From IMG/VR virus record IMGVR_UViG_3300020578_000011: 64,000 nucleotides of DNA; one strand, written 5' to 3'. Of the stretch, positions 29,328-63,883 are shown one piece after another. How positions within the stretch are numbered: position 1 is the stretch's first letter; every line of letters begins with the position of its first letter. Position numbers and translations under genes: made by a program. Source of the DNA: a virus. Below the pieces are notes generated by a model. It was not told where the DNA came from and ran no database searches. It saw only the letters and a list, made by a program, of their open reading frames with translations.

Positions 29328-29333
29328 TATAAT
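29323..29333 (+). promoter_or_regulatory. Extended -10 promoter TGTGATATAAT
   Basis: Perfect TRTG-n-TATAAT just upstream of ATG 29341, which implies a near-leaderless transcript. Confidence 0.55.
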
Positions 29334-29340
29334 AAACACT

Positions 29341-42366: not shown

Positions 42367-42940
42367 TGATCAGGTTATTGAGGCCGAAAAGTATCTTAAA
42401 AAACACAAGACTGCTGGAATTCTCAGTAAACACGATGCAATGCCAATGTATGAGCTTTATATATTGGGATATACTTTTGAAGATATATCAAAAAGATACC
42501 CATCTATCCCATATGGGAAGATACTGTTAACCGCAGCTTTGAGTGGATGGTCTAAGGATAGGGAGGTTGTCGCAGCCTCTCTTTACGATCGTATTAAAAC
42601 TAGAATAGTAAGATCGACAGTTGAACAAGTTGAGTTCCTAACAGACATGATATCTGTTTCAAATGTAGAAACCTCTGAAGAAGTTAGAAAGTATCTTAAT
42701 GATCCGGTTGGAAATCCTCCACCCTCTTTTAGAATTAAAACTATAAAAGATTATCAACAAGTAATAGACATGTTGGCCCAGGTAGCTGAATCTGTTAGGG
42801 GAATGGCAAATCCATCAAACGTAAGCAACGATAACAAACAAATACCACAAAATGAAATAAAAAAAATAAGTAAGAAATCAAAATCTTCAAGTGAAGAAGC
42901 TGTAATATTAGCTGAGTTAGTAGGTGATACAAGTGAGTAA
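42320..42940 (+). CDS. Probable terminase small subunit
   Basis: HTH-like GYTFEDISKRY...GW segment; immediately upstream of TerL. Confidence 0.55.
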   Translation: MQKKNLTPREKYGLSNDQVIEAEKYLKKHKTAGILSKHDAMPMYELYILGYTFEDISKRYPSIPYGKILLTAALSGWSKDREVVAASLYDRIKTRIVRSTVEQVEFLTDMISVSNVETSEEVRKYLNDPVGNPPPSFRIKTIKDYQQVIDMLAQVAESVRGMANPSNVSNDNKQIPQNEIKKISKKSKSSSEEAVILAELVGDTSE

Positions 42941-45900
42941 ATGCAGTGTGCCCGGTTGTGAAAGAGTGGTTTTAGCAAAAAATTACTGCAAACAACATTA
43001 TAAAAAATTCATATCAAGACCTAAGGAAAGAGCTCAAAAAGCAGCCTTGGCAAAGGTTGTTAAAGAAAATAAAGAAATAGAAATAGAAATCAAACCTAAA
43101 GAAGCGATAGAGATAAAAGATCCTCAGATAAAGAGCAATATAAAGTTAACAGCCGAGCAATTAGAGAAGATATTTTTTTCTCCCTGTAGAACTGAGCAAG
43201 AATTAAAAAATTATATTAAATTCTTTTTCGGTCTTCATCTCCCCGATTTTAAGGTATCGAGATACGCGGATACGACGCCCTTCCATGCCATTTGGGAGGT
43301 GTATGACATAACAGTAAATAAAAACAACCCTAAAAATATCCAAGAAATTCTATATGTTGCAGGACGTGGTAGCGGGAAGTGCGTTTTGCAAGACACTGAG
43401 ATTCTTACGCAAAATGGACTTAAACGTGTACAAGACGTCAAGATCGGCGATGTGGTCTGGACAGGCTGGTCCTGGAGATCAGTAGTCCAGACCTTCGACG
43501 AGGGAATCAAAGACGGAGTCACTTTAATCACCAAGTTTATGAGCAAGCACGGCGTGTGGTCGCTCACTGGTTCTTTAAAGCATCGCGTTCAGGCACTGCA
43601 TCCAGAGACCAACAAGATCGACTGGGTATACATGAAAGATCTAACTCCTGGTCAGCTAGTCTATAGATCTATAGAATCCTTGGGCCATCTGGTGGACGTT
43701 TCTTCTAAGGACTACGATCTTGGCTGGGTTGCTGGCTGCATAGTCGGCGACGGTTGTGTGGGCAGAGGAACAAACACGAATATATCTATGTGTGCAAAAG
43801 ACCCAGACCAGCTTGTACACTATGTGAGTCTGATAGACAGGCACCTAGGTGTGACGATAAACGTAAATTCCAGCTCTAAGTCTTCTGCTATAAAGAATGC
43901 GTCGTCTTCTACTAAGGCGTTCAGAGACTTCTTTAGGACGTACGTCGAGGGTGAACTCTGCTACTTCAAGAAACTAAAGACATTAGACCACAGTCCAAGC
44001 TTCTTGGCTGGATTCATCTCCGGTCTGATGGAGACCGATGGGTCCAAGGACTCGATCACTCTAGCCAACCCAGAACTCATACAGCAGATAGCCAAGATCC
44101 TCAATGTCTTCGGCGTGCACTCTGTAATAAATAAGAAGCGGAGAAAAGCGTCGACCACAAAGTTCGTAAAAGATCACATTGTCGAGTATCACTCGGTTGA
44201 GTACAAAACCCCGCTTCCAGAGTATGTAATGCCGCTTTTCTCTAAGCGCGATGCCTTTAAGGCGCACGCCGTCAAGATGAACGAACAGTTCCGATATCCT
44301 TCTAAGCTCATAAAGTCTTTTGCGGACCACATAAAGCAAAAATACGAGATCGCAAACGGGTACTGGCGTTTAGAGGCCGGCAAGAAAACTCATTCCGAGA
44401 TCAAGTACTCTAAGGATCTCTGGGGATCCGGCGAGAAGTCTAAAGAGTCTTATGTCTATGGCCACAAGATCGACTACTTTATAAGTCTGGCCAACCGCTT
44501 AGAAGAGCACGAGTGGGCAGAGTATCTGTCTTTCATCAGAAAGGGTTGCTACGAGACCGTAGATACCATAACGTTCGGCAAGCACTATTTCTACGATCTA
44601 GAGGTAGACGTCGATCACGCGTACTGGTCGAACGGCTTCATCAGCCATAACACTCTCGGCATGGCTATTGCAGAATTGATGGTTCTACTGCATGATCAAA
44701 GAGACGTGGTACATGTTGGCGCAATTCTTTCTCAGGCAAAAAGATGCTATGAATATCAGCAGAAGTTTTTATTAAACGATAGAATTAAACCAATCGTTAT
44801 GCCTCCTAAGACGCCAGAGGCATCTAGAATTCTTGAAAGAACAACAATGGAAAGATCTACGTTTAATGTATCTGGCGAAAAGATAACATTAGAAGTTCTT
44901 CCGTGTACATTGAAAGCATTAAACGGCCCACACGTTCCACTTGTTGTAGTTGATGAGATCGATACAGTATCTGGCGAGTCTGTCAAGGCATATAAGGAAA
45001 TATCTGGAATGCTTGACTCAAAAAGAGGAAAAAGACCTCTTCGTGTTGGTATTTCGACTAGAAAAACTAGATACGGTCTGATGAATCAAGCTATTGAAAA
45101 TGCAGAAAAACAAGGAAGAAATGTAAGAAGATGGACTGCATTTGAGTTTACAGAAAGATGTCCAGATTCAAGATCTGGAACTTCTAAAATAGAATTATTT
45201 ATTGATCAAAATTCTTTTGATGTCAGAACAAGAAATGATTATGAAAGATTAGCAACTCAAAAACAAAAAGACTATGAAAGACATGAGATGTTTGAAGGGT
45301 GCTTGAAATGTCCACTTGCACCAATATGCTTAGGTGATGCTAAAAAACAATCTTCTAAATCATCAATGTTAAAATCGATTGATGAACTTGCTCAAAAAGT
45401 CTTATCAGAAGGACCAGATTGGGCAATGGCTCAGCTTATGAATTTAAAACCAAGTGTAGAAGGAATTATATATAAAGAATTTGATGAAAGAACCCATGTC
45501 AAAACATGGAATCAAATGTGGCTTATTTTAACTGGTAAAGAGTTCCCTGGCGAGTGTGATCATGATATTTTTATAAAAAAATGTCACTCAATGGGACTTC
45601 AAGCATATGCAGGAATCGACTGGGGTTGGTCTAATCCACATACTTTGGTTGTATTTTTTGTAGACAGTAGAGAAAATATATATGTAGTTAGATGCGATGG
45701 TCAAACATACATATCAAGACCGGCATGGATGCATATAGTAAAACATAAATGGCATAATAACTATAGAATTCAATTATATTTTCCTGATATGGCAGACCCA
45801 GGTGATGCTCAGGAAATGAGAAAAATGGGTCTTCCGACTACAACTAACTCAGAAAAATCAAATATCAATGCAGGTGTTCAAGTTATTAAAAAATGGTTAA

Positions 45901-46313
45901 GAACACCAGGATCCAATGAGGCCAAGATATTTTTTGCAGCTGAAACATGTAAGCCAATAATACAGGAATTTCAATTATATCATTTTAAAGCAGATGCAGC
46001 TGGAAACATGACAGATGACCCAGACACAGAACATGATCACTGGCTCGACGCATTAAGATACTCTTTAATTAATTTATTTGGTAAAAATACTATAGTATTA
46101 GGATCTGCTGGCGTTGATATGGATGTTTCTAAAATAGTTGACTCTAGAGGTCATTTTATAAAACCACCTACTCCAGAGGAGTACGCAAAAGTTAATAATA
46201 TACCTTTTAATTCAGAGTATTCTACTGATAATATAGGTAAAATAGGAAGGCTATCTGAATTAGATGAAGACAGCGAACAATCTTCTGAAGGTGGCTTTCT
46301 TTGGACTATGTAA
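42933..46313 (+). CDS. terL: Terminase large subunit containing an intein
   Basis: Walker A GRGSGK|T split by the intein, VVVDEID, GIDWGWSNP and DHWLDALRY motifs; N-terminal CxxxxC...CxxHY finger. Confidence 0.92.
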   Translation: MSKCSVPGCERVVLAKNYCKQHYKKFISRPKERAQKAALAKVVKENKEIEIEIKPKEAIEIKDPQIKSNIKLTAEQLEKIFFSPCRTEQELKNYIKFFFGLHLPDFKVSRYADTTPFHAIWEVYDITVNKNNPKNIQEILYVAGRGSGKCVLQDTEILTQNGLKRVQDVKIGDVVWTGWSWRSVVQTFDEGIKDGVTLITKFMSKHGVWSLTGSLKHRVQALHPETNKIDWVYMKDLTPGQLVYRSIESLGHLVDVSSKDYDLGWVAGCIVGDGCVGRGTNTNISMCAKDPDQLVHYVSLIDRHLGVTINVNSSSKSSAIKNASSSTKAFRDFFRTYVEGELCYFKKLKTLDHSPSFLAGFISGLMETDGSKDSITLANPELIQQIAKILNVFGVHSVINKKRRKASTTKFVKDHIVEYHSVEYKTPLPEYVMPLFSKRDAFKAHAVKMNEQFRYPSKLIKSFADHIKQKYEIANGYWRLEAGKKTHSEIKYSKDLWGSGEKSKESYVYGHKIDYFISLANRLEEHEWAEYLSFIRKGCYETVDTITFGKHYFYDLEVDVDHAYWSNGFISHNTLGMAIAELMVLLHDQRDVVHVGAILSQAKRCYEYQQKFLLNDRIKPIVMPPKTPEASRILERTTMERSTFNVSGEKITLEVLPCTLKALNGPHVPLVVVDEIDTVSGESVKAYKEISGMLDSKRGKRPLRVGISTRKTRYGLMNQAIENAEKQGRNVRRWTAFEFTERCPDSRSGTSKIELFIDQNSFDVRTRNDYERLATQKQKDYERHEMFEGCLKCPLAPICLGDAKKQSSKSSMLKSIDELAQKVLSEGPDWAMAQLMNLKPSVEGIIYKEFDERTHVKTWNQMWLILTGKEFPGECDHDIFIKKCHSMGLQAYAGIDWGWSNPHTLVVFFVDSRENIYVVRCDGQTYISRPAWMHIVKHKWHNNYRIQLYFPDMADPGDAQEMRKMGLPTTTNSEKSNINAGVQVIKKWLRTPGSNEAKIFFAAETCKPIIQEFQLYHFKADAAGNMTDDPDTEHDHWLDALRYSLINLFGKNTIVLGSAGVDMDVSKIVDSRGHFIKPPTPEEYAKVNNIPFNSEYSTDNIGKIGRLSELDEDSEQSSEGGFLWTM
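43380..44651 (+). mobile_element. Intein with LAGLIDADG homing endonuclease (424 aa)
   Basis: Starts CVLQDTEI and ends GFISHN followed by Thr. Endonuclease blocks VAGCIVGDG and FISGLMETDG. GC is clearly higher than the flanks. Confidence 0.95.
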
Positions 46314-46343: not shown

Positions 46344-48287
46344 ATGTCATGGTTTGAAGATTTAAAAAAATCAATACAAGACCGTCTTGTAGAAGATATC
46401 GAGCAAATGACCAAAGCAGACGCAGATAAACTTCCAGAGAAGCCACAATCAGAAAATCAAGAATCAGGTCTTGTAAGAGGTAAGGCGATATTAACAGACC
46501 CTTATTTTGAACAAGCAAGTAATAATTATTTTCTTTCAAAAAATAAAATAAGCAGAATATCAAATAGAACTCTTAGAGACATGTCTCAAAGAGATTGGCT
46601 TGTTAGCACAATCTTACAAATAAGAGCAGATACTGTTTTAAGATTTTCAAGACGTCCAGAGCGCAGATACGATATGGGTTTTCGTGTCGTCAAAAGAGAT
46701 CACAGCGAGTCATTGTCTGAACAAGATATTGATAATATAAATATGTTGGAAAGTTATATATATAATTGTGGCAGAACTGAAAATGTCCCCAAAGGACAAG
46801 AAATGCTTTTAGGTGAATTTTTAAAATTAATAGTTAGAGATGGTCTTACTTTTGGATATGTGGCAGTTGAAAAAGTCTTAACAAGAACCGGGGCTCTTCA
46901 TCGCTTCAGACCTCTTCCTGCTGAAACAATGTACTTAATAAATCAAGCAATCAATAAAACAGTTGTAGAAGATCAAGTTAAAACTGCAATCAATATGTAT
47001 CATACTAAAAAAAGCGACAATGATCCAAGGGCGGATGGGTATCTTGCGCCTAGAGAAATAGATTATTATAAGTATGTTCAATTATCAACAGACAATAGAG
47101 TTTTAAATGCCTTTGGTGATGAAGACATGGTGTTTAAATTATTTAATCCACAAAACTATGCTGACTCTAATGGATATTGCATATCTGTAGTTGAGCAGGC
47201 AATCATAATGATAACAAATCATCTAAATATAGAGGCATATAATGCTAATTTTTTTACACATGGATATGCTGCAAGGGGTATTCTTCATTTAAAAGGTGCT
47301 GTTACTCAAAATACTCTTGCTTCTTTTAGAAGACAATTTTACAACACAATATCCGGATCCGCAAATGCTTGGAGAACTCCAATTGTTGCAGGCCTTGATG
47401 ATGTTCAATGGGTTCCAATGTCGGGTTCTGCACGTGAGATGGAGTATATAAATTTTAATTCTCATATAATGAGAGCTATTTGCGCACAATTTCAAATAGA
47501 TCCAATAGAAGTTGGATTAGATTATCTTACAACGGCAAACGGCAGAGCAAGTGCACAAGCTAAAGAATCTGGTCAATTTAAAATAACATACTCTCGTGAA
47601 CGAGGTCTAATTCCCATATTAATGCTTGTTGAAGACTTATTTAATCAAGATATCCTACCTGCTTTAGACAAAGATCTTGCAGATAAATATAAATTTAAAT
47701 TTGTTGGATACACAGATGACACGGCAATGACTGATATAAGTCTTCGTCAGGCACAGATGACAGTTTTTTCTTCAATGAATGATCTTCTTCACAATGAAGA
47801 AAAAACACAAATAAACCACCCCGCTGCAAATCTTCCATTGAATCAATCTTTTTGGAATCTTGTTGAAAAAAACATGACCCGTGGAGAGATTCGTGAATTT
47901 TTCTTTGGAGATAAGGGAGCATCTAAAAGACCAGAGTTGCAATATCTTCCATCGGATCCGGCATTTTTATCTTGGAATCAGTTAATGATGACAATTAATG
48001 TTCAACAACAACAAAAAGAAATACAAAAACAACAACAGCAACAACAGCAACAAATGCAACAACAACAAATAAAACTTCAAGAAAGTCAAGAACAAAGAGA
48101 ACAAGAAGCGCATGATCATCAGATATCTGAGTCTAAACAAGAGCAAGCAAACTCTGTTGTAAGATCTCAAGATCTTTCTAGTCTACAAGATTTGGCTAGA
48201 CAATACGGTGCCACAAAAGCAACAAACATAGGCGGAAAAGAATTAAAAAATCCAATAAATACCCTTGAAGAAATAGAAAAAAAATAA
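46344..48287 (+). CDS. Portal protein
   Basis: YN.NFF.HG...RGIL, AWRTPIV and ICAQFQIDPIEVG motifs; follows TerL; poly-Gln tail. Confidence 0.9.
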   Translation: MSWFEDLKKSIQDRLVEDIEQMTKADADKLPEKPQSENQESGLVRGKAILTDPYFEQASNNYFLSKNKISRISNRTLRDMSQRDWLVSTILQIRADTVLRFSRRPERRYDMGFRVVKRDHSESLSEQDIDNINMLESYIYNCGRTENVPKGQEMLLGEFLKLIVRDGLTFGYVAVEKVLTRTGALHRFRPLPAETMYLINQAINKTVVEDQVKTAINMYHTKKSDNDPRADGYLAPREIDYYKYVQLSTDNRVLNAFGDEDMVFKLFNPQNYADSNGYCISVVEQAIIMITNHLNIEAYNANFFTHGYAARGILHLKGAVTQNTLASFRRQFYNTISGSANAWRTPIVAGLDDVQWVPMSGSAREMEYINFNSHIMRAICAQFQIDPIEVGLDYLTTANGRASAQAKESGQFKITYSRERGLIPILMLVEDLFNQDILPALDKDLADKYKFKFVGYTDDTAMTDISLRQAQMTVFSSMNDLLHNEEKTQINHPAANLPLNQSFWNLVEKNMTRGEIREFFFGDKGASKRPELQYLPSDPAFLSWNQLMMTINVQQQQKEIQKQQQQQQQQMQQQQIKLQESQEQREQEAHDHQISESKQEQANSVVRSQDLSSLQDLARQYGATKATNIGGKELKNPINTLEEIEKK

Positions 48288-49182: not shown

Positions 49183-49724
49183 AGATGGTAAATCAACAAA
49201 AAACAAATCAAATACAAAGAATTGAAACTTTAGAAAAACATATTGAAAATTTATCAATGGCACTTAGAGTAAACCAAATACTATTAAAGCAAACAATAGA
49301 CCAATTGCAGCCAATGCAATCAGAGCTAAAGACAAACACTAGTATACTTAGTGATTTTCAATATAGGGTTCTTGGATTGCAAAAATATCTTCCAATAAAT
49401 AACGAGGAGCTAACTTCTATTGTCAATGAATTAAAATCAACAGACTGGGATCGAGCATCTGACAAAGATGATTTAGATAAAAAACTTGAAAAAAAAGAAT
49501 TTGTTTCATCAAAAAATGACATAGTTATAATATCTTCTGTTGTATTGGAAGGAGAAAATGTTAAAGGCGGTATATTTAGATCAAAGATAAAATTAGAAGA
49601 AGCAGGCCAAGGTCTTGTTGATGTTCTTTTAAATAAAAAAGTAGGAGAAACAGTAGAGGCTGTGTTAAACGATGAGAAACATTTAGTAAGTTTATTAGGT
49701 GTTAGGACTACGAATTTAGAATGA
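49179..49724 (+). CDS. Coiled coil plus FKBP-like domain (trigger-factor or GreA C-terminal-like)
   Basis: DIVII....EGENVKGG...LLNKKVGETVEAV segment. Confidence 0.4.
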   Translation: MKMVNQQKTNQIQRIETLEKHIENLSMALRVNQILLKQTIDQLQPMQSELKTNTSILSDFQYRVLGLQKYLPINNEELTSIVNELKSTDWDRASDKDDLDKKLEKKEFVSSKNDIVIISSVVLEGENVKGGIFRSKIKLEEAGQGLVDVLLNKKVGETVEAVLNDEKHLVSLLGVRTTNLE

Positions 49725-50137
49725 ATGATACTAAAGAAAGATTTGATAAAAAATGCCCACGTCAGTTGAAAGACTATCCTAAGGGATATTGTCCATTAGC
49801 TGTTATTCGCCTAAAATGGCTTAGATCTCTTGGTAGAGAGCCAACTGAAGAAGAAGAACTCAATGCTCCTGGGTGCAATTGGGCAATTAATCATCAAATG
49901 TCTAGTTATTGTTGGTTTGTTTATGAAACAAAATTTATGCCAGATTCTCCTGTATCCGATGTTGAAATAGCTGCTGCTTTAAACATTTCTATAGAAACAG
50001 TAAAACAAGTTGCAGATTCTGCAATGTCAAAAGTGCAATCTTCTGAACTCGTGGTAGAACTAAAGAAGACTTTAGACGGGGAGTCTATCGTTGATGAAGT
50101 TCTCGGAGTTGAAGATGAAGCAATCTATTGCGAATAA
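49721..50137 (+). CDS. Cys-rich domain plus sigma70 region-4-like HTH
   Basis: VSDVEIAAALNISIETVKQVADSAMSKV resembles region 4.2; four Cys in the N-terminal half. Confidence 0.55.
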   Translation: MNDTKERFDKKCPRQLKDYPKGYCPLAVIRLKWLRSLGREPTEEEELNAPGCNWAINHQMSSYCWFVYETKFMPDSPVSDVEIAAALNISIETVKQVADSAMSKVQSSELVVELKKTLDGESIVDEVLGVEDEAIYCE

Positions 50138-50429: not shown

Positions 50430-51311
50430 ATGGCTACTAAATTTGATGCGGTTGCAGGATCTGAGTTAAGAGACATTCAAGGAGAAATTCTAGATGTCAA
50501 AGGCGCAGATATTTCAGAATTAGAAGCTGGTCAAGGAATTGTTAACGACAACCATAGCAATAAGCTACCCGATGTCATCGGTAGAGTAACTGGTGCAAAA
50601 AAAATATTTAAAGTAGAAGATTGCGAAAGTGATCGTCAAAAATATTTTTGGAATAAAATAAAAGCTCCATATATATATGTTACAGGTGAACTTTTTGACG
50701 ATGAAGACCATAGATCAGCAAGGGCAGCGGCGGCTATATTAAGACATCAGCACAAAACAGATTCTCCACTTAAGCTAAAGTGCTCCGTAGAAGGAGGTAT
50801 AGTAGAAAGAGGCGAGAAAGACGATAGAATTTTAAAAAGAACAAAAATTAAAGGTTTAGCATTGACCTTTACTCCAGCCAATAATGCAACTCTTGTTGAG
50901 GGAGTTGATTTAAATAAAAGCAATAATCCACAAGAATTTGAATTAATAAAATCAATATCTCATCTAGCGAGAAAAGATGTTCCCTCTTTTATAGAAATGG
51001 CTGATACATTATCTGAAATTAAAATATTATCAAATGTAGAAAAAATAAAAGAAACAATATTAACTTTAAAAAAAAATAACATAAATAAAGCATTAGTCGC
51101 TGGATATGGCTCAGCAGGATCTCCGACAAGCCTAACTGGCGGCGGCGTTTTTCAAACTGAATCTATTGATACAAAATCAAATAAAAATCAGTATATAGAA
51201 TGTCCATCATGTGGTAAAGAGCAACCATATGTTGTATATCAAGTTAAATGTCGATCTTGTAATAAGCATTTTCCATTTGACACATTAGCTAAGTTCTTTA
51301 TAAATAAATAG
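50430..51311 (+). CDS. Prohead maturation protease
   Basis: D.QGE, NDNH, SVEG and ALT..PAN motifs (HK97/SPO1-type); C-terminal capsid-like peptide and CxxC..CxxC. Confidence 0.85.
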   Translation: MATKFDAVAGSELRDIQGEILDVKGADISELEAGQGIVNDNHSNKLPDVIGRVTGAKKIFKVEDCESDRQKYFWNKIKAPYIYVTGELFDDEDHRSARAAAAILRHQHKTDSPLKLKCSVEGGIVERGEKDDRILKRTKIKGLALTFTPANNATLVEGVDLNKSNNPQEFELIKSISHLARKDVPSFIEMADTLSEIKILSNVEKIKETILTLKKNNINKALVAGYGSAGSPTSLTGGGVFQTESIDTKSNKNQYIECPSCGKEQPYVVYQVKCRSCNKHFPFDTLAKFFINK

Positions 51312-51411: not shown

Positions 51412-51795
51412 ATGGCTAATTCTGTCCAGGTTCTTGATAAAGTGGCACGAAACCTCAATCAGCTAGGCGTTCCTGCTGTTCGTGGGGCTTCTTCAGTATC
51501 GGCTGCAGGACTTACTATATCTTATGTAAGCGCCTCGGTCCAATCTCCAATGGGTGGCGTTGACAAAGATGCTTCTCCATTTCTTGGTATTGGCGTTGCT
51601 GCGCCAGGTAAATTAAAAATCAAAGGTGCTGCTGGTGAAAATTCACTTGCTGCAATTTTGGACACTGCAGCGGCGGTAAATGTTCTTGCTGTTTGTTCTC
51701 GTTTTGCTAACAATCTCCAGATCGAAGCTGGTGATTCGGCATCAGTTCTTGTAGAACTCGCTGGTCATACAGATCTTTTGATGGTTGGTGAATAA
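51412..51795 (+). CDS. Probable head decoration/structural protein
   Basis: Ala/Gly-rich, highly-expressed-type codon usage, strong RBS, in the capsid operon. Confidence 0.5.
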   Translation: MANSVQVLDKVARNLNQLGVPAVRGASSVSAAGLTISYVSASVQSPMGGVDKDASPFLGIGVAAPGKLKIKGAAGENSLAAILDTAAAVNVLAVCSRFANNLQIEAGDSASVLVELAGHTDLLMVGE

Positions 51796-51813: not shown

Positions 51814-52596
51814 ATGACTACAAAATTAAGCAAAAGTCTCGCCGATCTCATTGATGAAACTCTAGCTGAAATCGAAGAACTAAAAAAGTCTGATCGTTTT
51901 TCTGCTGAAGAAATCGAACTTGGAGAAAAGTCAGCACAAGGCGGAATGGCTAAGGGCGACGAAGAGGACGATGAGAAAGACGAAGACGAAGACGAAGACG
52001 AAGAAGCTAAGAAAGCAGAAGACGACGAAGACGAAGACGACGAAGAGCATGAAGAAGAAGATGAAGCCAAAAAAGCTGAAGAAGAATGCGAAAAAGCAGA
52101 AGCTGAAATGGCCAAGGCTGAAGATGAGTGCGAGAAAGCAGAGCATGCTTATTCAAAAGCGCTTAAAAAGCGTGAGATGTGTAAAGCAGAACTTGAGCAT
52201 AAACTCAAGAAAAAAGAGATGAAAAAACCTCACTGGGCTAAGAAATCAGAAGGTGTCAATCTCATGGTCAAAGAAGAAAAAGAGATGAAGAAGTCACTTG
52301 CAAAATCAATTGACGAAAGAATCTCACCTCTTGAGACCAAACTTTCTCAAGTTTTAGATGTTGTTAAACAACTTGCAGATACCCCATTCCCACAGCGTGG
52401 ACACACGTATCGTCAAATCCAGCCTCTTGCAAAAAGCACTGGAGATGTAGAACCTCTTAATAAGACAGCTGTTCTTAATAAACTTCTTGATCTTAAGAAG
52501 ACTGGAACAGATGTCGATGCTGCAGATGTGATTCGTGTAGAAGTTGGTGGAAATGGTGATCTTAACGAAGTTGCTAACAAATATGGAATTAAATAA
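51814..52596 (+). CDS. Scaffold protein
   Basis: Acidic coiled coil with many K-S/K-A sites, directly upstream of the major capsid gene. Confidence 0.7.
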   Translation: MTTKLSKSLADLIDETLAEIEELKKSDRFSAEEIELGEKSAQGGMAKGDEEDDEKDEDEDEDEEAKKAEDDEDEDDEEHEEEDEAKKAEEECEKAEAEMAKAEDECEKAEHAYSKALKKREMCKAELEHKLKKKEMKKPHWAKKSEGVNLMVKEEKEMKKSLAKSIDERISPLETKLSQVLDVVKQLADTPFPQRGHTYRQIQPLAKSTGDVEPLNKTAVLNKLLDLKKTGTDVDAADVIRVEVGGNGDLNEVANKYGIK

Positions 52597-52607
52597 GGAG
52601 AAAAATA

Positions 52608-54062
52608 ATGTACGCTGACGCTTTTAATCAGATTATGCAGGGAATTGAACAAGGAGTGGTCTCTCAAGAAGAGATTGAAAACCTTAATAAGGCACTAGTA
52701 GCGGGATACGGTGGTGCTGGTCGTCCTACTGATCTAACCTATGGCGGTGTTATTCAGACTGAGTCACTTGAATCAACTCTTAAAGTTGTTACATTTGACA
52801 TGAAGAATCTTAAACTCTGGCCAGCAATCACAATCGACAAGGCTTATAACCTATTCGAACAATATAACCGTCTTGTTGGATATGGTTCAGATACTTCGCC
52901 CTATATTGCTGAAGGCGGAGCTGGACAAGAATCAGATTCAACATATGTACGTGACGGACAGCGCATCGTGTTCTTCAGCAAGCGTCGTAAGGTTTCGCAT
53001 CAGATGACTCTTGTTCGCACAACCGTTGGAGACGTTGTAGCTCAACAGGCTAAAGAAGGAACAATGGACCTTCTTAAAGATGTTGAACGTGAACTATACT
53101 GGGGACATGCTCACTTTGCAGATGCATCTGGTGCTCAATCAGGTGCAACAGCTGATCTTCCAGTTAATTCACTTGCCATGAATGGCCTTCTACAACAAAT
53201 CCTTAAGGGTGATCGTGATAGCCAATTTACTTCAAAAGATTTTGAAGGTTGGGGCGCTGAGTCATCATCTGTTGTGAAGGATCTTGCTGGTCTTTCTTTT
53301 GCACAAGACGATGTTGAAGAACTTGCAGTTCGTGCTCTTGAAAATTTCGGAGCTCCAGATCAGCTTCACGCTGAGCCCGCTGCTGTTTCTACATTCGTTC
53401 GTCAATTTTATCCACAGTTCCGTTCTGAACCAGGTCTTGCTGGTCAAACTGTTGGTTATGACGTAGCAAATGTCACCACTACTGCAGGAAAAATTGCACT
53501 TAAACCAAGTCTTTTCCTACGTCCGCGCCAACAAGTTCGTCCAGCAGCTGCTTCAGCTTCTGCTCCTTCTGTTGCGGGTCTAAGTGTTTCTGGAGCTGCT
53601 GCAGGATCAGGATCAGCTCTTTCAGCTGGTAGTTATCATTATGCAGTAACTTTTGTTAATGACTTTGGCGAATCAGCTCCAATTTTAACTTCAGCACCAG
53701 TTTCAGTTACAGCTGGACAAGTTGTTGAATTGACTCTAGCTGGTTCTGTTCCATCTTCTGTCAAGCACATGAAGGTATATCGTGCCGCAAGTGGAGCTGC
53801 AGCTTCAACGGCGCAGTTTATCTCAAATCATCGCGTGGGACTCTCCGCTATTAAAGATGCTGGTGCCAAGCGCCCTGGTCTTGGTGAAGCATTCCTTCTT
53901 GATATGCGTGCTGAAACAATGAAGTTTAAGCAACTTGCTCCTCTTGCTAAGATGAATCTTGCTGTGGTCACAACTGCACTTGAGTTTCTCTTGCTCATGT
54001 ACGGAGCACTATTTGTTTACGCACCGCGATTCAATTGCGTAATGCGAAATGTTGGTAAGTAA
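52608..54062 (+). CDS. Major capsid protein (SPO1/Twort-like) with Ig-like insertion
   Basis: LNKALVAGYG...QTESLESTLK, QLAPLAKMNLA and LMYGAL...AP motifs; Ala-rich YAVTFVN..GES insertion. Confidence 0.9.
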   Translation: MYADAFNQIMQGIEQGVVSQEEIENLNKALVAGYGGAGRPTDLTYGGVIQTESLESTLKVVTFDMKNLKLWPAITIDKAYNLFEQYNRLVGYGSDTSPYIAEGGAGQESDSTYVRDGQRIVFFSKRRKVSHQMTLVRTTVGDVVAQQAKEGTMDLLKDVERELYWGHAHFADASGAQSGATADLPVNSLAMNGLLQQILKGDRDSQFTSKDFEGWGAESSSVVKDLAGLSFAQDDVEELAVRALENFGAPDQLHAEPAAVSTFVRQFYPQFRSEPGLAGQTVGYDVANVTTTAGKIALKPSLFLRPRQQVRPAAASASAPSVAGLSVSGAAAGSGSALSAGSYHYAVTFVNDFGESAPILTSAPVSVTAGQVVELTLAGSVPSSVKHMKVYRAASGAAASTAQFISNHRVGLSAIKDAGAKRPGLGEAFLLDMRAETMKFKQLAPLAKMNLAVVTTALEFLLLMYGALFVYAPRFNCVMRNVGK

Positions 54063-55622: not shown

Positions 55623-56738
55623 ATGCCTGTTGGAGTTATAAAAACAAAAGCAGATCATAAAAAATGGAAAAAAGCAAAAAAGATTGTCGAAGAACAACAC
55701 GGCGAAATACGCTGGCCTTTGGTCATGCACATATATCAACAAATGGCTAAAGATGACGAACCAAAAGATAAAAATGTTTTAATTGAAAGAGCATTAGATA
55801 AACAAGGCAGAAAAGTCGTAATTCCACAAGAGGTTCATGATGTGTTAAAACCAATGTGGGAGAGAGATAAAGATAAATTATTAACACCAGAACAAAAACA
55901 AAAATTAGAATCAATAAAACAAGCAAAACAAAGACGTTCTGAATTTAAAATAGTAAAATCAGCAGAAGAATTAAATTATGTAGAAAGTTCTTTAAAAAAA
56001 ATAAAGCAAGAACTAGATGTTTTTTTTATTTTAGAAAAAGATGAAAAATCTGGATCAGGAGGATGGAAACCACCATCTGGTTTTGACCCCAAGACCCACC
56101 CAGACACAAGCGCATTAATGCTTATTCATGGATTAAATCCACGTGAAGCTTCTTTTATGTCTGGTGCTCATACTTCTAATGAGTATTCTAGAGGTAGGTA
56201 CTTCAGACCAACCCCTCTATCTGAAGGAATGCTTGAACATGCTAAAAGAGTAGCTAAACAAAAATTTGAAGAACATGAGCAAAAAAGAAGAGAAACTGCA
56301 GATCCGGCTCAAAATCCAGATTTATTTTTACAACACAATGCTCAAAGTGTTCACAAGGGATTTAATGGTAATTTTCAAGATGATTTAAAGAATTTTAAAG
56401 AATCTGATGAATTTAAAAATTTATCACAATCTGATAGACCTGGCAGAATCATGCAATGGAAAGCTGATTGGCAAAAACAAAACTTAGAAAATCAAAAACA
56501 ATCAGCCGCAAAAGCAGCTGGACTGCATAGTGAATTGGCAGATCATGCAAACACAGAACGAGCTAAAAAATTAATTGAGCAACGTGAAAACATATTAAGA
56601 GGCGGAGAAGGAGTTTCTGATTCTTCTTTTTCTGATAAGGTTAAAAGAGACACGCCAGATCATAGTGTAGATGAAGATTTAAGCGACGAAGACATGGAAG
56701 ATATAAAAAATCTCGAGGAAGATGATTATGGACGATAA
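55623..56738 (+). CDS. Hypothetical protein, probable head-internal
   Basis: N-terminal MP.GVIKT..D...W.KAK...W..V..IY..M small phage domain; charged body. Confidence 0.6.
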   Translation: MPVGVIKTKADHKKWKKAKKIVEEQHGEIRWPLVMHIYQQMAKDDEPKDKNVLIERALDKQGRKVVIPQEVHDVLKPMWERDKDKLLTPEQKQKLESIKQAKQRRSEFKIVKSAEELNYVESSLKKIKQELDVFFILEKDEKSGSGGWKPPSGFDPKTHPDTSALMLIHGLNPREASFMSGAHTSNEYSRGRYFRPTPLSEGMLEHAKRVAKQKFEEHEQKRRETADPAQNPDLFLQHNAQSVHKGFNGNFQDDLKNFKESDEFKNLSQSDRPGRIMQWKADWQKQNLENQKQSAAKAAGLHSELADHANTERAKKLIEQRENILRGGEGVSDSSFSDKVKRDTPDHSVDEDLSDEDMEDIKNLEEDDYGR

Positions 56739-57456
56739 TACTATACATAAATATTTAGTAAGTAATTATATGCCATTAATGATTGGTGTTATAAGAAAAA
56801 TGAAAAATAAGGGACTGATACCGCAAGATATGTCTCATTTGAGTCCAGATGAGTTATTTCTTGATCTTTATGAACCAGCTGTTCATGGTTTGATGAAGTC
56901 AATTCATACTTATGATCCTAATAAACTATCTTTAAAAACCGGTAATAAAAAAAGTTTTATAGCACATGCTTGGAGCACGATAAGTGGAATAGTATCCGAT
57001 CATCTTAAAAATAAAAACATAGCATCTGCAGATGTGAATTTAGCTAGAATTAATCAAGCTAAAAAAGAAAACGCATCAACTCAAACTATTGGTATTAAAG
57101 GACAAGGCATAGGTAGAGAGGTAGCAGAACATCTAGGCGGAACTGTTGGAGAAGAAGGAGAGGGGGTCGGTGGAGTTTCAGTTATTAGAAATCCAGAGCA
57201 AGAATTTGCAACAAGACTATCTCCAGAAGCTAAAAATATCCTCCAAGCAAAAATAGATAAAGCAAAAGCTAAACTTGGAGAAAAAACACAAACATCGTCA
57301 GATCAACCACCCGCCTTACCTTCACAGGTAAAGGAACCTTCTTCAACAGAGCCTCAAAAACCAAAGTTAATAATAAGACGCATGGCAAAACCAGATCAAG
57401 TTGATCGCATGGAAAGAATAGATGCTGCAAAAGCAGCATCTAAGAAGCCGGAGTAA
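56728..57456 (+). CDS. Stand-alone sigma70-family region 2 protein (no region 4)
   Basis: LVSNYMPLMIGVIRK (2.1), DLYEPAVHGLMKSIHTYDP (2.2) and SFIAHAWSTISGIVSDHLK (2.3/2.4). The rest is low-complexity. Confidence 0.7.
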   Translation: MDDNTIHKYLVSNYMPLMIGVIRKMKNKGLIPQDMSHLSPDELFLDLYEPAVHGLMKSIHTYDPNKLSLKTGNKKSFIAHAWSTISGIVSDHLKNKNIASADVNLARINQAKKENASTQTIGIKGQGIGREVAEHLGGTVGEEGEGVGGVSVIRNPEQEFATRLSPEAKNILQAKIDKAKAKLGEKTQTSSDQPPALPSQVKEPSSTEPQKPKLIIRRMAKPDQVDRMERIDAAKAASKKPE

Positions 57457-59029: not shown

Positions 59030-59983
59030 GTGGAGAGGTTAATTAAATCAAAAAATGGTCAATGGTCATTGATAAAGGTGGCCGATGAAGTTAAAAATAG
59101 AATAGCTGAAAAGGTGTCTAGAATGGCCGAACAAGGTCAGGGAGATGTCAAAGCAAACACCTCAGAAAGCATTTACAACATCCCTAAAGAAGCAAAGGAT
59201 TTCAATCCTCATATTCATTTATTTCATCCCAACGCATCAGATCCTCTTCATAGATTAAATCAAGATGAGTGGCATAGTCATTTTCAAAACATGATGCAAA
59301 ATGATAAATTAAACACTGATCAAATAGATACTCTGGAGGCAGAAAATAAGCGTCGTGACAATGTTATCCACATGGCGAATCAAAAAAAATCAAAAAAACC
59401 AGTCTTTGATCCAAGAGCTATAAAAAGAGGCGAGTCTGATGTAAGATTTGACAATGTAGATTATAAAGTGCGTATAGAAAGAGATTTTGGAGACATAGAT
59501 AGAATGTCTCCCGAAGATAGAGAAAAAATTAAACAACAACACAACCTATCTACAGAAAACATAATGCAAAGAAAAGAACAACAAGAAAAGCAGCAAGCAA
59601 AAAATAAAGAACTTGCAGATAGCCACGCTGCTGAAGTTGAAAGAGTCAAGCATGAAAAGTTTAAAGAAGCTCAAAAATCAATAATGAAAAATTTACCACT
59701 TAACGATAAAAAACAAATGGATGACCTTTATAAAAGAATATCCGGCAGTAAGGATCTTGCAGACAAAATATCAAGATACCTTCACATTGTACATGAAGTC
59801 AAACCAGATGGATCTGTTGCAAATATTTCTTACCATCTTAAAAATCATGCTAGTGAACAGTTAAACGACTTCGTCACATCAATGCGCGGCGACAATGCTC
59901 CGTACACTGAAAATAGATTTGTAGGATTAGACGATGTAAATCCACATGACACACCTAACTTGATTGATAAAAAGGGAGCTTGA
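59030..59983 (+). CDS. Probable head-internal protein with N-terminal LIKSKNGQWSL tag
   Basis: GTG start with its own TATAAT at 59001. Confidence 0.65.
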   Translation: MERLIKSKNGQWSLIKVADEVKNRIAEKVSRMAEQGQGDVKANTSESIYNIPKEAKDFNPHIHLFHPNASDPLHRLNQDEWHSHFQNMMQNDKLNTDQIDTLEAENKRRDNVIHMANQKKSKKPVFDPRAIKRGESDVRFDNVDYKVRIERDFGDIDRMSPEDREKIKQQHNLSTENIMQRKEQQEKQQAKNKELADSHAAEVERVKHEKFKEAQKSIMKNLPLNDKKQMDDLYKRISGSKDLADKISRYLHIVHEVKPDGSVANISYHLKNHASEQLNDFVTSMRGDNAPYTENRFVGLDDVNPHDTPNLIDKKGA

Positions 59984-59985
59984 TA

Positions 59986-60534
59986 ATGGAAAAGTTGATA
60001 AAATCAAAAAATGGTCAATGGTCTTTAACAAAAGCAAAAGACTCCTCTGGAGACAACGACAACAACGAGATGCTAATGTCTCAACTTAAGCAGATTGTTC
60101 ACCATGTTAAAGAATTGAATTCAAACATAGATAGATCGGGCAATGAGCCTGATTGGGTAAATGCTAAAATCACAGAGGCAGCAAAAGCATTGTCAGATGT
60201 TGCTCATTATATCGACGGTCTTAAAGATGTTAAAAAGACCGAAGAAATGAAAAAAAATATGAATGATGATATGGAAAAAGAAATAAGAAGATTGCAAGCC
60301 AATAAAGATGCTGCTGGTAACTTTATAAGACCTAGAGTCAAACCCGGTAAAGCAAATAGATTTATGCATGGTGGAGTTCAAGGTTGGAATCTATTTGATG
60401 AAAGAGTAGATGAAAAAATGCAAGGTAAGAAACCTAAAAAAGAGTCAACTGATAAAGCAAAAAGCATTCAACAACCAAATACTAAACCAAAAATAGTAAT
60501 CAGAAGAAAAAAACCTAGCACAACTGAGGAGTGA
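59986..60534 (+). CDS. Probable head-internal protein with N-terminal LIKSKNGQWSL tag
   Basis: GGGAG RBS; PDWVNAKITEA module. Confidence 0.65.
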   Translation: MEKLIKSKNGQWSLTKAKDSSGDNDNNEMLMSQLKQIVHHVKELNSNIDRSGNEPDWVNAKITEAAKALSDVAHYIDGLKDVKKTEEMKKNMNDDMEKEIRRLQANKDAAGNFIRPRVKPGKANRFMHGGVQGWNLFDERVDEKMQGKKPKKESTDKAKSIQQPNTKPKIVIRRKKPSTTEE

Positions 60535-60537
60535 TTT

Positions 60538-63243
60538 GTGTTTCAGAAGGATGAGGAGACAATCGACGTATTATCGACCCGTCATCTTGGTCTTATTCCA
60601 GAAGGCCATCCTGATCGTAAAAAAATAGCTCAGCATATTAATAATCTAAGAACATCAAATCCAAATGAAGCAAGACGTTTGTATGATCGTTTCATAAGTG
60701 GTGGCGGTAGCTACATCAAAGATAAATCTGAAATTAATATTAAAGTAAATAAATCAGAAAATAATATTAATTTAACTTTAAAAAATCATTTTGAAGGTTC
60801 TTCTACTTCTCCAACTGAGTACCACTATTCGGTTCACAAAAATGGTGATGAAATTGGTCGTGCAATTGTCTTTGATAAAGACCCAAGATCAATACACTCT
60901 CAAGGCAAAGAAGGTGCTTCTTTAAAAGATATAAGAATAAAACCAGAACATCATGGCAAAGGATACTCTGAGCACATAATCAATTCACTTGTTGAAAAAC
61001 ATGGTCCACTTGCGTCCGATAGTAGAGGAAATATATCCGAAGCCGGACATAAGATGTTTAGTAAATATGGTTCTTCAATAAAATCAAAAGAAAATAAAGA
61101 TTTATATATGTTTGGAGGATCTGTGAAAAAATATTTATCTACTGAAAAATTACCTTTGTATTCTGAGTACATAGAACCGCTACAAAAGGGCGAGAAGTTT
61201 CCTCATTTTTTGAATTTCATGGGTAACCACCCTAAAGCTCGAGAAACAGCTCAATGGGTTGATGAAAATATAAAACACAGAAATTTGGCTGAGTTAGCTA
61301 TGCGTCATGCAAAAACTAAGCCAGAGGGTCTTAACGACGAAGAAAAAACTCACATTAAGCACTTTAATGATTCACTGCATATGCCAGAAGTTCAAAAGGC
61401 TGCCGGTTCGATAACAAGTCAGCATGATTTTTCTAGTGGAATTGAGCTATTGAAAGAAGCGGAATCTGCTTATCAAAAAAGACATGCAAAAGAAGCTCCT
61501 ACGTTAGTTTCGACGGAAGGAGAAAAGTTATTAGATTTTGGCGATGGAGTTGGTGTTTATAGACTTCCGTTAAATGCAGACCGTAAAAATAAAAACGAAG
61601 CCACAGCTATGGGCCATTGTGCTACTCCACATAAAGGCGGGGAGTTGTGGTCTATTAGACGTGACCACGGTAATGGAATGGTTGAACCTTTAATATCCAT
61701 ATCGCACGAAGGCGGCTATCTTGGTGAAATGAAAGGAAAACATAATTGGAAGCCATCAGCAAAACATCACGGACATATTGCTAAGTTGTTGGCGTCCGAT
61801 AAAATTAAAGGGTTTGTTGGAGGAGGGTATGCTCCAGAAAGCAACTTTGAAATTTCTGATTTAAGTGAAGGATTTAAGAATAAATTATTAGAATATAAGC
61901 CATCTTTAATTCAAAAAGTTTATAAAGAAAATTTGCCAGAAGGGTTTCAAGGAGACTATAATCATACTCCTGAAATTAAAAGTATTTTTAGTACAAGTGA
62001 TTTAGCTGCTCAACAAAAATATTTAGCAAAAATTAGTGAAAATACGGACCAGCGTAGACGTGTTCTCTGGAGCGCAGCAACAAACCCACACACACACCCA
62101 GACATTCTTCACAAACTAGCAGAAGACTCTGACCAAGATGTTGTCTGGAGCGTATCACATAACCCAAATACACATCCAGATACTCTCCACAAACTAGCAG
62201 AAGACTCTGACTACGGTGTTCTCTGGAGCGTATCAACAAACCCAAATACACATCCAGATACTCTTCACAAACTAGCAGAAGACCCTGGATACGAGTTACG
62301 CGAAAACGTAGCACTACACCCAAATACACATCCAGATACTCTCCACAAACTAGCAGAAGACCCTTATGTTCGCAAAAGCGTAGCAACAAACCCACAATTC
62401 AAAAATTTACCGCTAGAAATACAACAAAAAGTAAGACCACTTGTAAATACACCTATTCAAAAAATTATTGCTATGATTAATGATGGAGAAAATAACCCAG
62501 ACCCTGCTCATGAAGCAACAGAAGAGCTAAAATTACGCCGTCAAGAAAAATACGACAAAATTCTTTCTCCAGAAGGAAACTTAAGTGATATTCAGCATTT
62601 ATCTGAATCACACAATAATAATATTGCAAGACGAGCTAGAAATGAATTAAAACGCAGAGGATTACAAAAATCAGATCTTGAGCATAGTTTAGAATTTGCT
62701 AAAAAATACAAATCTTTAGCCAAGCATGCAGTAGATCAAGGAGACAAAGAAGGTGCTACTAAATATATGAAATCTTTATTAATTCATTTACAAAAAAGTT
62801 ATCAATTTTTAAACAATGAAAGATTTGAAAAATCTCAAAAAAATCACCCTAAAGGTGGTCTTTCTAGAAAAGAAGCTAAAAAACACGGAATACATGCCGG
62901 CATAGAAACACACGATGAAGTTAAGAGAAAAGGTGGAGTAAGCAAACTATCTAACAAAACATCTGCTCGACGTAGAAGTTTTTGTGCTCGCCACTGTGGG
63001 ATGAAGCGCAAGTTTCCTAAAGCATACAAAGATAGGCAGTCAAAAGGAAACAAAGCACTCCGCGTATGGCATTGTGGATCTTGTTCTAATTGGCTTAAGA
63101 AATCAATTGGAGCAGATGATACAATAAAATTCTATGAAGATCAAGACAATTTAATAATAGAATTTGACAATGATGTTCCACATGAAATAGAAACACTTGT
63201 CGTCGCATCTATTCTAGCTAAAGGATTTAAAGAAAATGAATAA
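60538..63243 (+). CDS. Polyvalent protein: GNAT-like + PcfJ-like + LRV repeats + DUF6321-like
   Basis: IKPEHHGKGYS (acetyl-CoA motif), EATAMGHC...EMKGKHN, NPNTHPDTLHKLAED repeats, and RRRSFCAR...KALRVWHC. Confidence 0.7.
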   Translation: MFQKDEETIDVLSTRHLGLIPEGHPDRKKIAQHINNLRTSNPNEARRLYDRFISGGGSYIKDKSEINIKVNKSENNINLTLKNHFEGSSTSPTEYHYSVHKNGDEIGRAIVFDKDPRSIHSQGKEGASLKDIRIKPEHHGKGYSEHIINSLVEKHGPLASDSRGNISEAGHKMFSKYGSSIKSKENKDLYMFGGSVKKYLSTEKLPLYSEYIEPLQKGEKFPHFLNFMGNHPKARETAQWVDENIKHRNLAELAMRHAKTKPEGLNDEEKTHIKHFNDSLHMPEVQKAAGSITSQHDFSSGIELLKEAESAYQKRHAKEAPTLVSTEGEKLLDFGDGVGVYRLPLNADRKNKNEATAMGHCATPHKGGELWSIRRDHGNGMVEPLISISHEGGYLGEMKGKHNWKPSAKHHGHIAKLLASDKIKGFVGGGYAPESNFEISDLSEGFKNKLLEYKPSLIQKVYKENLPEGFQGDYNHTPEIKSIFSTSDLAAQQKYLAKISENTDQRRRVLWSAATNPHTHPDILHKLAEDSDQDVVWSVSHNPNTHPDTLHKLAEDSDYGVLWSVSTNPNTHPDTLHKLAEDPGYELRENVALHPNTHPDTLHKLAEDPYVRKSVATNPQFKNLPLEIQQKVRPLVNTPIQKIIAMINDGENNPDPAHEATEELKLRRQEKYDKILSPEGNLSDIQHLSESHNNNIARRARNELKRRGLQKSDLEHSLEFAKKYKSLAKHAVDQGDKEGATKYMKSLLIHLQKSYQFLNNERFEKSQKNHPKGGLSRKEAKKHGIHAGIETHDEVKRKGGVSKLSNKTSARRRSFCARHCGMKRKFPKAYKDRQSKGNKALRVWHCGSCSNWLKKSIGADDTIKFYEDQDNLIIEFDNDVPHEIETLVVASILAKGFKENE
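62060..62395 (+). repeat. 72-bp-period tandem repeats encoding leucine-rich-variant (LRV) repeats
   Basis: Four to five near-identical copies of aacccaaatacacatccagatactct(c/t)cacaaactagcagaagac. Confidence 0.9.
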
Positions 63244-63883
63244 AGAATTAATAGAACTTTATAAATCAAAACCAGAACTAATAGACGAGCACAAGAAACT
63301 TGTTCAAGTTCTTCGCCACGGCACCGATACTGAACAAAAAAAAGAAGCAGAACGTCAGCTAAAAGAACTTAAAGAAATGTTAAATAAAGAAGAGAAAAAC
63401 TCTGATGATAAAAAAACACACTTGTCTACAGATGGAAAAACCTTTATCAATGGTTCTAGCATTAAAAAAATCTTAGATAGAGGGGTGAAGAATGGAGTGC
63501 AAACAAGAACATATGAAATGCATGATGGATCTGTAAAAGAAGCATACTTTCCCCACTATGAAGAATTAAAAAATTCTCCTAATCATTATCAATTAAGTAA
63601 ACTAACTAAAGAAGAATTAGAAAAAAGATGCTGGGAAGGATACAGACCCGTTGCCGGTAAAAAGCCGTATGAAAAGGGCTCTTGCGAACCTGTGTCAAAG
63701 CAAGAAGTGTTAAAAATAGAAAAAAATGGCCAATGGTCTCTTGATAAGAGCAATAATATAAAACCTTTTGGTGAAAATATATTTGATACTACAGCAAATA
63801 TTCAAAGAAAAGCTAAAAGACTTGGTGAGGTTCAAGAAGGAGTGGGTGCTAATCAAGCTGTTCATCCGTTCACAGGCCTTTGA
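63236..63883 (+). CDS. Probable head-internal multi-motif protein (CWxGY and NGQWSL motifs); frame stays open past the TGA
   Basis: CWEGYRPV...GSC and KNGQWSLDKS motifs; 39 further sense codons in the same frame to the window end. Confidence 0.6.
   Translation: MNKELIELYKSKPELIDEHKKLVQVLRHGTDTEQKKEAERQLKELKEMLNKEEKNSDDKKTHLSTDGKTFINGSSIKKILDRGVKNGVQTRTYEMHDGSVKEAYFPHYEELKNSPNHYQLSKLTKEELEKRCWEGYRPVAGKKPYEKGSCEPVSKQEVLKIEKNGQWSLDKSNNIKPFGENIFDTTANIQRKAKRLGEVQEGVGANQAVHPFTGL

Follow-up and report, generated by a model that had tools for sequence, protein, structure and literature searches.

A portable peptide tag on unrelated proteins of an uncultured phage clade, with a possible role in head loading

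A short peptide with N-G-Q-W at its core recurs in four otherwise dissimilar proteins encoded in a 64,000-nucleotide stretch of viral DNA (IMG/VR record IMGVR_UViG_3300020578_000011; the whole stretch is called the window here). This peptide, which we call the tag, is a real and portable element that is conserved at the level of the peptide, is limited to one clade of phages, and is associated with the motif L-x-K followed by Ala or Ser (L-x-K[A/S]). Whether it acts as a portable head-loading signal coupled to protease processing is, judged from the sequence comparisons below, about evenly balanced in our view; its partner, loading, cutting, and injection are the parts of that reading that we infer.

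Results

Four copies of one peptide in dissimilar proteins

The four peptides had been picked out in an earlier sequence-only reading of the window, and all of them proved to be in frame, on the + strand, and inside long open reading frames (ORFs). They are listed here with the length of the carrier in amino acids (aa) and, for the first three, the bit score from a 20-column hidden Markov model (HMM) that was built from 27 tag instances.

59030..59077, + strand: tag copy 1, MERLIKSKNGQWSLIK; residues 1-16 of ORF 59030-59983 (317 aa, GTG start); 32.4 bits
59986..60033, + strand: tag copy 2, MEKLIKSKNGQWSLTK; residues 1-16 of ORF 59986-60534 (182 aa, ATG start); 36.6 bits
63704..63748, + strand: tag copy 3, EVLKIEKNGQWSLDK; internal, residues 157-171 of ORF 63236-63883 (215 aa); 30.3 bits
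29719..29763, + strand: tag copy 4, EQLSMSPSGQWRLKK; C-terminal and diverged (S for N), residues 139-153 of the 154-aa ORF 29305-29769

Copy 4 scores weakly when taken alone (5.8 bits); it shares its alignment columns with the canonical tags of 15 homologues, among which E139, G147, Q148, W149, and L151 are invariant. When the four carriers were compared pairwise by BLAST, the best segments were the tags themselves, and no credible similarity was found outside them. The idea of a portable peptide on otherwise dissimilar proteins is borne out by this comparison, as it is by the HMM and cluster searches described below. The first carrier, ORF 59030-59983, is a charged protein that matched no Pfam or PHROG family, and an ESM Atlas look-up gave no usable match for it. 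A degenerate DNA word for N-G-Q-W occurs three times in the window, compared with a mean of 0.05 in shuffled sequences, and none of 100 shuffles reached three.

A repeated stretch of this kind could also be a by-product of recombination or duplication, or a nucleotide-level signal, with no function as a peptide. The run of 23 identical nucleotides that had been reported between copies 1 and 2 is indeed present, and with the two copies only 956 nt apart it would suit such an origin. However, the nucleotide similarity between them begins at the start codon and not upstream of it, copy 3 differs from the other copies at synonymous sites, and codons vary among relatives. The empty reversed control, the codon use, and the occurrence of the tag at N-terminal, internal, and C-terminal positions in 140 clusters (all below) already contradict this explanation, and the probability that we leave to it is negligible.

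A tag of one phage clade

Relatives of the window were taken from a capsid-protein search of IMG/VR (the best 80 of 100 stretches, at 62-83% identity) and supplemented with five long records. The 27 tag instances gave the 16-residue consensus E(-7)-x-[LIV]-x-h-x-x-x-N-G-Q-W-x-[LI]-x-K, in which positions are numbered so that the Glu is -7 and the Lys +7. A motif scan of the window and its relatives, of the kind that the sequence-only reading had proposed, showed that the tag recurs: the HMM gave 48 matches of at least 8 bits in the window and 1.9 Mb of relatives, and 0 in the reversed sequences. There are 3-5 tag copies per genome among the relatives.

Two sets of tags are used below. The bias-free set holds 30 distinct tags that were found without requiring K. 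The profile set comes from a search with 46 tag segments against 1.84 billion representative proteins (E <= 0.001), and tags selected in this way are biased toward K. Glu at -7 is present in all 30 bias-free tags, which divide into 14 N-terminal, 13 internal, and 3 C-terminal ones; the corresponding numbers for the 187 tags of the profile set are 76, 101, and 10. N-terminal tags start as M, or M plus 1-3 residues, and then E. The profile search returned 143 protein clusters, each with a representative, from which three large WD40, Ig-like, or FG-GAP repeat proteins were set aside as presumed false positives. One tag is found in 93 of the 140 credible representatives, two in 46, and three in 1, and some small proteins are tagged at both ends (e.g., P0018, P0019, and P0029).

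Nineteen tags that were found without a codon-fixing pattern use 4 Gly, 2 Asn, 2 Gln, and 5 Leu codons. Because the tag codons vary this freely across relatives, selection acts on the peptide and not on the DNA. A degenerate DNA scan of IMG/VR matched at least 124 stretches. Among the matches listed, 80 loci with flanks comprised 57 with an HMM-positive tag and 23 without a tag, and the latter look like chance matches. Non-tag proteins homologous to those of the window's clade are also encoded at 51 of the 57 tag-positive loci among the matches listed, which places the tag in one phage clade. The members of this clade are uncultured, SPO1-distant myophages with a GC content of 33-52%. A word-based protein search with residues 1-40 of ORF 59030 matched only the protein itself and was uninformative.

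A fifth look-alike in the window, INGKWRIK at the C-terminus of ORF 31133-32737 (nt 32714-32737), was rejected, as it has no Glu at -7 and is that family's own conserved end. The ORF encodes a 534-aa metallophosphoesterase-like protein (phrog_1745, annotated "DNA transfer protein"), and its relatives end in INGQWRL, which resembles the second half of the tag.

A probable hairpin that behaves as a separate module

The carrier of copy 2, ORF 59986-60534, is laid out as the tag, a linker of variable length, and a conserved helical domain. An AlphaFold2 (AF2) model of this protein (four homologues) has strands at residues 2-6 and 12-16. The predicted local distance difference test (pLDDT) score is about 74 and 65 in the first two 10-residue blocks and below 50 in linker residues 18-24, which are followed by two helices; the overall mean is 61. 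With this moderate support from the model, the tag is probably a small beta-hairpin on a flexible linker. AF2 gives two strands where an amphipathic alpha-helix would be expected of a microcompartment-type peptide. Aligned members of the family share an invariant tag and a conserved helical domain but differ by more than 30 residues in the linker, so the tag behaves as a separate, tethered module.

A second family gives a similar picture. The homologue of ORF 63236-63883 in the closest relatives consists of two genes, both of them tagged. In the upstream half, which aligns to residues 1-54 and 131-172 of the window protein, the tag is at the end; the downstream half starts with a different tag copy and aligns to residues 164-214. 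The halves are separated exactly at the tag by an endonuclease VII-like gene (phrog_1035, E 1.7e-14; L101:1947-2525, record G001), which has the look of an inserted mobile endonuclease. Regardless of which form came first, both halves carry a tag when they stand alone. In the window protein, the letters PFGEN stand shortly after the tag (about 63767-63781).

The number of tags per protein also bears on a different explanation, in which the hairpins bind one another and zip tagged proteins into a mixed internal body or a cytoplasmic complex with no single receptor. Two or three tags are carried by 47 of the 140 representatives, some of them at both ends, as a cross-linker would look, and there are 3-5 tagged proteins per genome. 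Judging from the consensus, the hydrophobic positions -5, -3, +3, and +5, flanked by E(-7) and K(+7), could be read as one face closed by a salt bridge. However, AF2 shows only a monomeric hairpin, at moderate confidence, and multiple tags fit multivalent binding to a repeated receptor, such as the capsid lattice, equally well. We consider self-binding rather improbable.

The L-x-K motif in the tag and in head proteins

The sequence-only reading had each tag ending in L-x-K, which is true of most tags but not of all. K is present at +7, so that the tag ends in L-x-K, in 22 of the 30 bias-free tags; the other 8 have no K there, and some C-terminal tags end at the L. The residue after K in those 22 is A in 7, S in 7, G in 2, and N in 2 (A or S in 14 of 22). 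In the K-biased profile set, 167 of 187 tags have K(+7); the next residue is A or S in 116 of these and A, S, N, or G in 136.

The same motif had been noticed in the capsid, scaffold, portal, and protease, and there it is conserved at fixed positions. The genes concerned are as follows, with an arrow marking a putative cut.

46344..48287, + strand: portal protein; h-x-K-[AST] site at residue 22 in 27 of 31 sequences, followed by a variable stretch
50430..51311, + strand: head maturation protease; conserved L-N-K-S (161), L-I-K-S (172), and I-N-K↓A (218-221)
51814..52596, + strand: putative scaffold protein, assigned from position and composition; L-x-K-S at residues 5, 23, and 205, each in 31 of 31 sequences
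52608..54062, + strand: major capsid protein, a relative of SPO1 Gp6.1; putative maturation site L26-N-K28↓A29 (nt 52683-52694)

Conserved sites were counted as [LIVMF]-x-K-[ASGN] kept in at least 80% of a family's sequences.

Portal 2, protease 3, scaffold 5, and capsid 3: 13 sites in 1684 aa
Eight other conserved families of the same region: 0 sites in 1826 aa
Two further families: 1 site each, in 740 aa

None of the conserved head-protein sites has the tag's E or N-G-Q-W. In the capsid protein, the N-terminus reads ...E-N-L-N-K↓A-L-V-A-G-Y-G, and all 25 aligned sequences keep L26, K28, and A29. The same site is A-L-N-K-A in SPO1 Gp6.1 and N-L-N-K-A in Bacillus phage SP-10. Capsid K28 pairs with K24 of the phi812-type capsid protein of a staphylococcal phage, where the boundary is K24↓S25; PDB chain 9row has 439 aa and 5lii has 463, and their matched coordinates are offset by exactly 24 at both ends. 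A literature search on Herelleviridae capsid cleavage found no paper that states the site, including PMC3185647 and PMC5923470 as far as their text answers to the search terms, and a search on gp6.1 gave one unrelated preprint. To judge from these conserved positions and the chain alignment, L-x-K followed by A or S is likely the cutting motif of the head protease.

In its C-terminal module, the protease has a copy of the stretch downstream of the capsid site (I-N-K↓A-L-V-A-G-Y-G-S-A-G...Q-T-E-S), followed by a zinc ribbon. This duplication (window 51081-51180 versus 52683-52790) is also found in the SP-10 protease, and it may be how the protease gets built into the prohead.

With such a motif at its end, the tag might be a processing cassette only, a hairpin that presents L-x-K↓A/S to the protease so that polyprotein-like precursors are cut, with no part in addressing. 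The counts of K(+7) in the bias-free and (biased) profile sets would agree with this, as would the location of internal tags at module junctions. However, the 8 bias-free tags without K do not fit a cassette, behind C-terminal tags, which stop at +5 or +7, there is nothing that cutting would set free, and N-terminal tags begin at residue 2, where cutting would discard only the tag. The invariant E and N-G-Q-W also lie far from the scissile bond, and head proteins keep their sites without them. We hold a pure cassette to be decidedly improbable. The 8 of 30 tags without K, the mixed positions, and the C-terminal ends at L together argue that the hairpin is the functional unit and that cleavage is at most an add-on.

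Slots of tagged genes and a domain that changes places

Tagged genes occupy recurrent slots in the genomes of the clade. One lies beside the protease (e.g., L001, L018, L036, L066, and G005), one directly after the capsid gene (L033, L042, L064, and L076), and one after an adaptor-like gene (the window and its closest relatives). Further slots lie elsewhere (see Discussion), and the association of tagged genes with the head module is partial.

The best link between cargo and head comes from a gene that has no tag in the window.

60538..63243, + strand: untagged 901-aa protein amid tagged genes; LRV/HEAT-type repeats and a weak DUF6321 match

Residues 213-440 of this protein are homologous to an N-terminally tagged protein of L076 whose gene comes immediately after that of the capsid protein (31% identity, E 1e-21), and also to an insert of 700 residues within the L001 head protease (32% identity, E 2e-29). 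The L001 insert carries HEAT-type repeats, as ORF 60538 does, and it is located between the catalytic domain, which ends with L-N-K-S and L-I-K-S, and the conserved K↓A site. Across L001-L080, the head protease ranges from about 290 to 1007 residues, and the difference is an insert of 0-700 residues before the K↓A site. A domain that is built into the protease with a likely cut site on each side is difficult to interpret except as head cargo, and these homologies suggest two routes to the head for one cargo, fusion to the protease or a tag. A lytic transglycosylase that had been seen by eye in the protease inserts was dropped, as Pfam gave no match in 6 of 7 proteases at E <= 0.001.

In the window, ORF 60538 has neither a tag nor a fusion. 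It directly follows the tagged ORF 59986, and this gene pair is conserved in relatives; the small tagged protein might be an adaptor for ORF 60538. A read-through fusion of ORF 59980 and ORF 60538, which share a frame with one TGA and one codon between them (window 60532-60540), was weighed and rejected as a conserved feature, because four relatives have separate genes that end with TAA in another frame and because TGA ends 17 of the 50 ORFs of the window.

The carrier of copy 4, ORF 29305-29769, directly follows SbcC and overlaps its end. Members of this post-SbcC family have a conserved N-terminal part, the tag, and then a variable tail, which may be absent, a short FGENNSV end, or domains of up to 250 residues. 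FGENNSV is a second short motif; it is C-terminal and stands directly after the tag or after an inserted domain (L142, L149, L168, L212, and L106).

Cargo

Few carriers belong to described families. No Pfam family was matched by 127 of the 143 representatives at E <= 1e-4, nor above the cut-off by 26 of 27 local carriers, and 136 of the 140 credible representatives had no PHROG match; the four matches are to families of unknown function. The Pfam domain that most often adjoins the tag is FlgM (anti-sigma-28, PF04316), in 7 of the 143 representatives, 5 of them above the 25-bit cut-off. FlgM adjoins the tag but never overlaps it (P0054, P0085, P0088, P0135, and P0146), and it is also present in the gene after the capsid gene in L033 (L033:11509-12951, 31.5 bits). 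None of the window's four tagged ORFs matches FlgM at E <= 0.01. Other Pfam matches among the 143 were DUF6321 (2), DUF5661 (2), GNAT (1, P0113), and MORN (1). Among the post-SbcC tails, PI3/PI4-kinase was matched in L169 (27.9 bits, cut-off 27.1) and, below the cut-off, in L196, and one tail gave a weak GNAT match (16.7 bits, below the cut-off). In L151, a tagged protein of 504 residues has a weak match to a PHROG whose annotation is head maturation protease (E 7.7e-6).

Such cargo could instead be wanted outside the head. The hairpin might dock its carriers on a non-capsid hub, either an RNA polymerase or sigma factor (of host or phage) or the replication and recombination machinery, so that regulators and modifying enzymes would be delivered to where they act within the infected cell. 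The frequency of FlgM, the PI3/PI4-kinase-like and GNAT cargo (L169 and P0113), and the conserved slots after SbcC and helicase are in keeping with a hub, as is a small ORF beside the protease and tagged genes (49721-50137) that has a weak match to sigma-70 region 4 (19.7 bits, below the cut-off). However, a hub leaves unexplained why the end of the tag matches the motif of head proteins and why a cargo domain has an alternative place in the head protease. According to passages of PMC9026906, T4 also packages and injects enzymes and regulators of this sort, such as Alt, so the cargo types do not separate the two readings. On balance, we think a hub unlikely.

The FlgM domains allow a more specific conjecture, in which FlgM-like cargo would be drawn out of the cytoplasm into new proheads and would thereby free a late sigma-like factor, which would make capsid assembly a checkpoint on transcription. 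The parallel would be the flagellum, where sigma-28 is released when FlgM is exported through the finished hook. The conjecture seems to us very unlikely to hold. In a milder version, anti-sigma, kinase-like, and acetyltransferase cargoes may be injected with the DNA and reprogram the next host.

Genome setting

The window has a GC content of 33% and, from Pfam- and PHROG-type gene assignments, belongs to a large myophage-like genome. Its remaining modules are arranged as follows.

1-18 kb: baseplate and fibre genes
18-41 kb: replication and recombination genes
42.9-46.3 kb: large terminase, intein-bearing (gene 42924-46313)

The terminase intein contains a LAGLIDADG-type endonuclease domain, and a GroEL-type chaperonin is encoded at 24818-26545 (phrog_5725, E 1.5e-94). 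The capsid protein has about 31% identity to those of SPO1-like Bacillus phages, a figure that includes SP-10, and matches PDB 9vel (SPO1 Gp6.1) with E 1.3e-54. With a capsid protein homologous to Gp6.1 and the gene order protease, scaffold, capsid, as in SP-10, the head module is of the SPO1/Herelleviridae type. Between protease and scaffold lies a conserved 127-aa, Ala/Gly-rich gene (51412-51795) in which L8-x-K10, close to the N-terminus, is invariant; in SP-10, this place holds no gene. Its product was weighed as a possible receptor for the tag and not retained (AF2 pLDDT 75.5; Foldseek against PDB gave nothing at E <= 0.001). ORF 56722-57456 was likewise not kept as a sigma factor, since sigma region 2 was seen by eye only and Pfam gave no match.

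Discussion

We favour a portable head-loading signal as the explanation of the tag on three grounds: the domain that is swapped between a tagged protein and the protease, the slots in the head module, and the matching motif with a conserved small residue after K. The last of these counts for processing, since a pure docking hairpin would not need it. Under this explanation, the hairpin on its flexible linker would dock unrelated proteins to one common partner in the assembling head, for which the scaffold core, the inner capsid surface, and the protease are candidates. In most copies, the second strand of the tag runs into L-x-K and A or S, where the head protease would likely cut, and cutting once the cargo is loaded could take off an N-terminal tag or split modules that are joined by an internal tag. 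Loaded proteins would then travel in the head and would probably enter the next host cell with the DNA.

Several observations weigh against this explanation. The 8 of 30 bias-free tags without K at +7 lack the proposed cutting site, and several C-terminal tags stop at +5 (the L), where nothing is left to cut; consequently, cutting cannot be essential to the tag. L-x-K[A/S] is also a short motif, and the carrier proteins are rich in Lys. At least one conserved site of the capsid protein (I-D-K-A, residue 76) falls within the mature fold, so some conserved sites are left uncut. That the staphylococcal capsid protein is trimmed by 24 residues after V-x-K is a deduction from chain lengths and coordinates. 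As for location, tagged genes also occupy slots after SbcC and after helicase, and of the 12 tagged ORFs in four long genomes, only 4 are no more than 10 kb away from the capsid gene. The post-SbcC slot is in fact the most often recovered tagged position (about 20 loci), and it holds the best-conserved tagged gene, in the replication and recombination module. Finally, a tblastn search with the 30-residue tag region found no match, and hence no cultured member, among 50,697 cultured phage records.

The closest precedent is the capsid targeting sequence (CTS) of phage T4. As passages of PMC3012670 and PMC9026906 describe it, it is a short peptide that directs the diverse internal proteins bearing it to the scaffolding core and is cleaved off by the head protease, and it can also carry foreign proteins; in PMC9026906, it is a 10-residue N-terminal propeptide that ends in L/I-x-E. 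The sequence-only reading drew this analogy, and part of it stands. As with the CTS of IPI-III and Alt, one short peptide is common to diverse, fast-evolving proteins of one phage (four in the window), lies beside a short motif (here a putative protease site), and has enzymes and regulators among its carriers. The tag is not a leader only, with 14 of the 30 bias-free tags N-terminal, nor is it always followed by a site that could be cut. Unlike the CTS, it is a predicted beta-hairpin of 16 residues with L-x-K at its end, is found inside a protein or at the C-terminus as often as at the N-terminus, and occurs up to three times per protein. Packaging by the T4 CTS is proven, whereas packaging by the tag is a proposal from sequence, and we claim no sequence relationship between the two.

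Encapsulin cargo-loading peptides and microcompartment encapsulation peptides are also short, are borne at a terminus or on a linker, can be placed at either end of the cargo, and dock it inside a protein shell. They are extended or helical and are not known to be coupled to proteolysis, whereas the tag is a predicted hairpin that is associated with a putative protease motif.

The giant phages phiKZ and SPN3US process many internal proteins of the head with a head protease that acts at a short motif (a passage of PMC9026906; see also PMC5694885, PMC7411985, and PMC10052503). Cutting there is after Glu, and the passages of PMC9026906 that were compared describe no single portable hairpin. The window phage belongs to a lineage distinct from phiKZ and SPN3US, with a capsid protein like SPO1 Gp6.1. 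A full-text literature search for the tag motif found no paper, and the papers that searches on capsid targeting gave deal only with T4 and giant phages. As a concept, the tag corresponds to the T4 CTS; it differs in the peptide itself, the predicted fold, the positions, and the putative cleavage motif.

Whatever its function, the tag is a clade-specific peptide module that had not been described before. If it is a head-loading signal, it would be a second capsid-addressing system, independently evolved and structurally different, with about 140 natural cargo families of which nearly all have unknown function. A hairpin tag would be usable at either end of a protein or between modules, in contrast to the short leader of T4, and one may speculate that it is a compact tag to try for loading proteins into engineered phage heads. 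In metagenomes, it would offer a sequence handle for phage proteins that are packaged and possibly injected, including candidates for anti-defence and host takeover. The proposed cleavage rule, L-x-K and then A or S, is testable for head maturation in SPO1-related phages.

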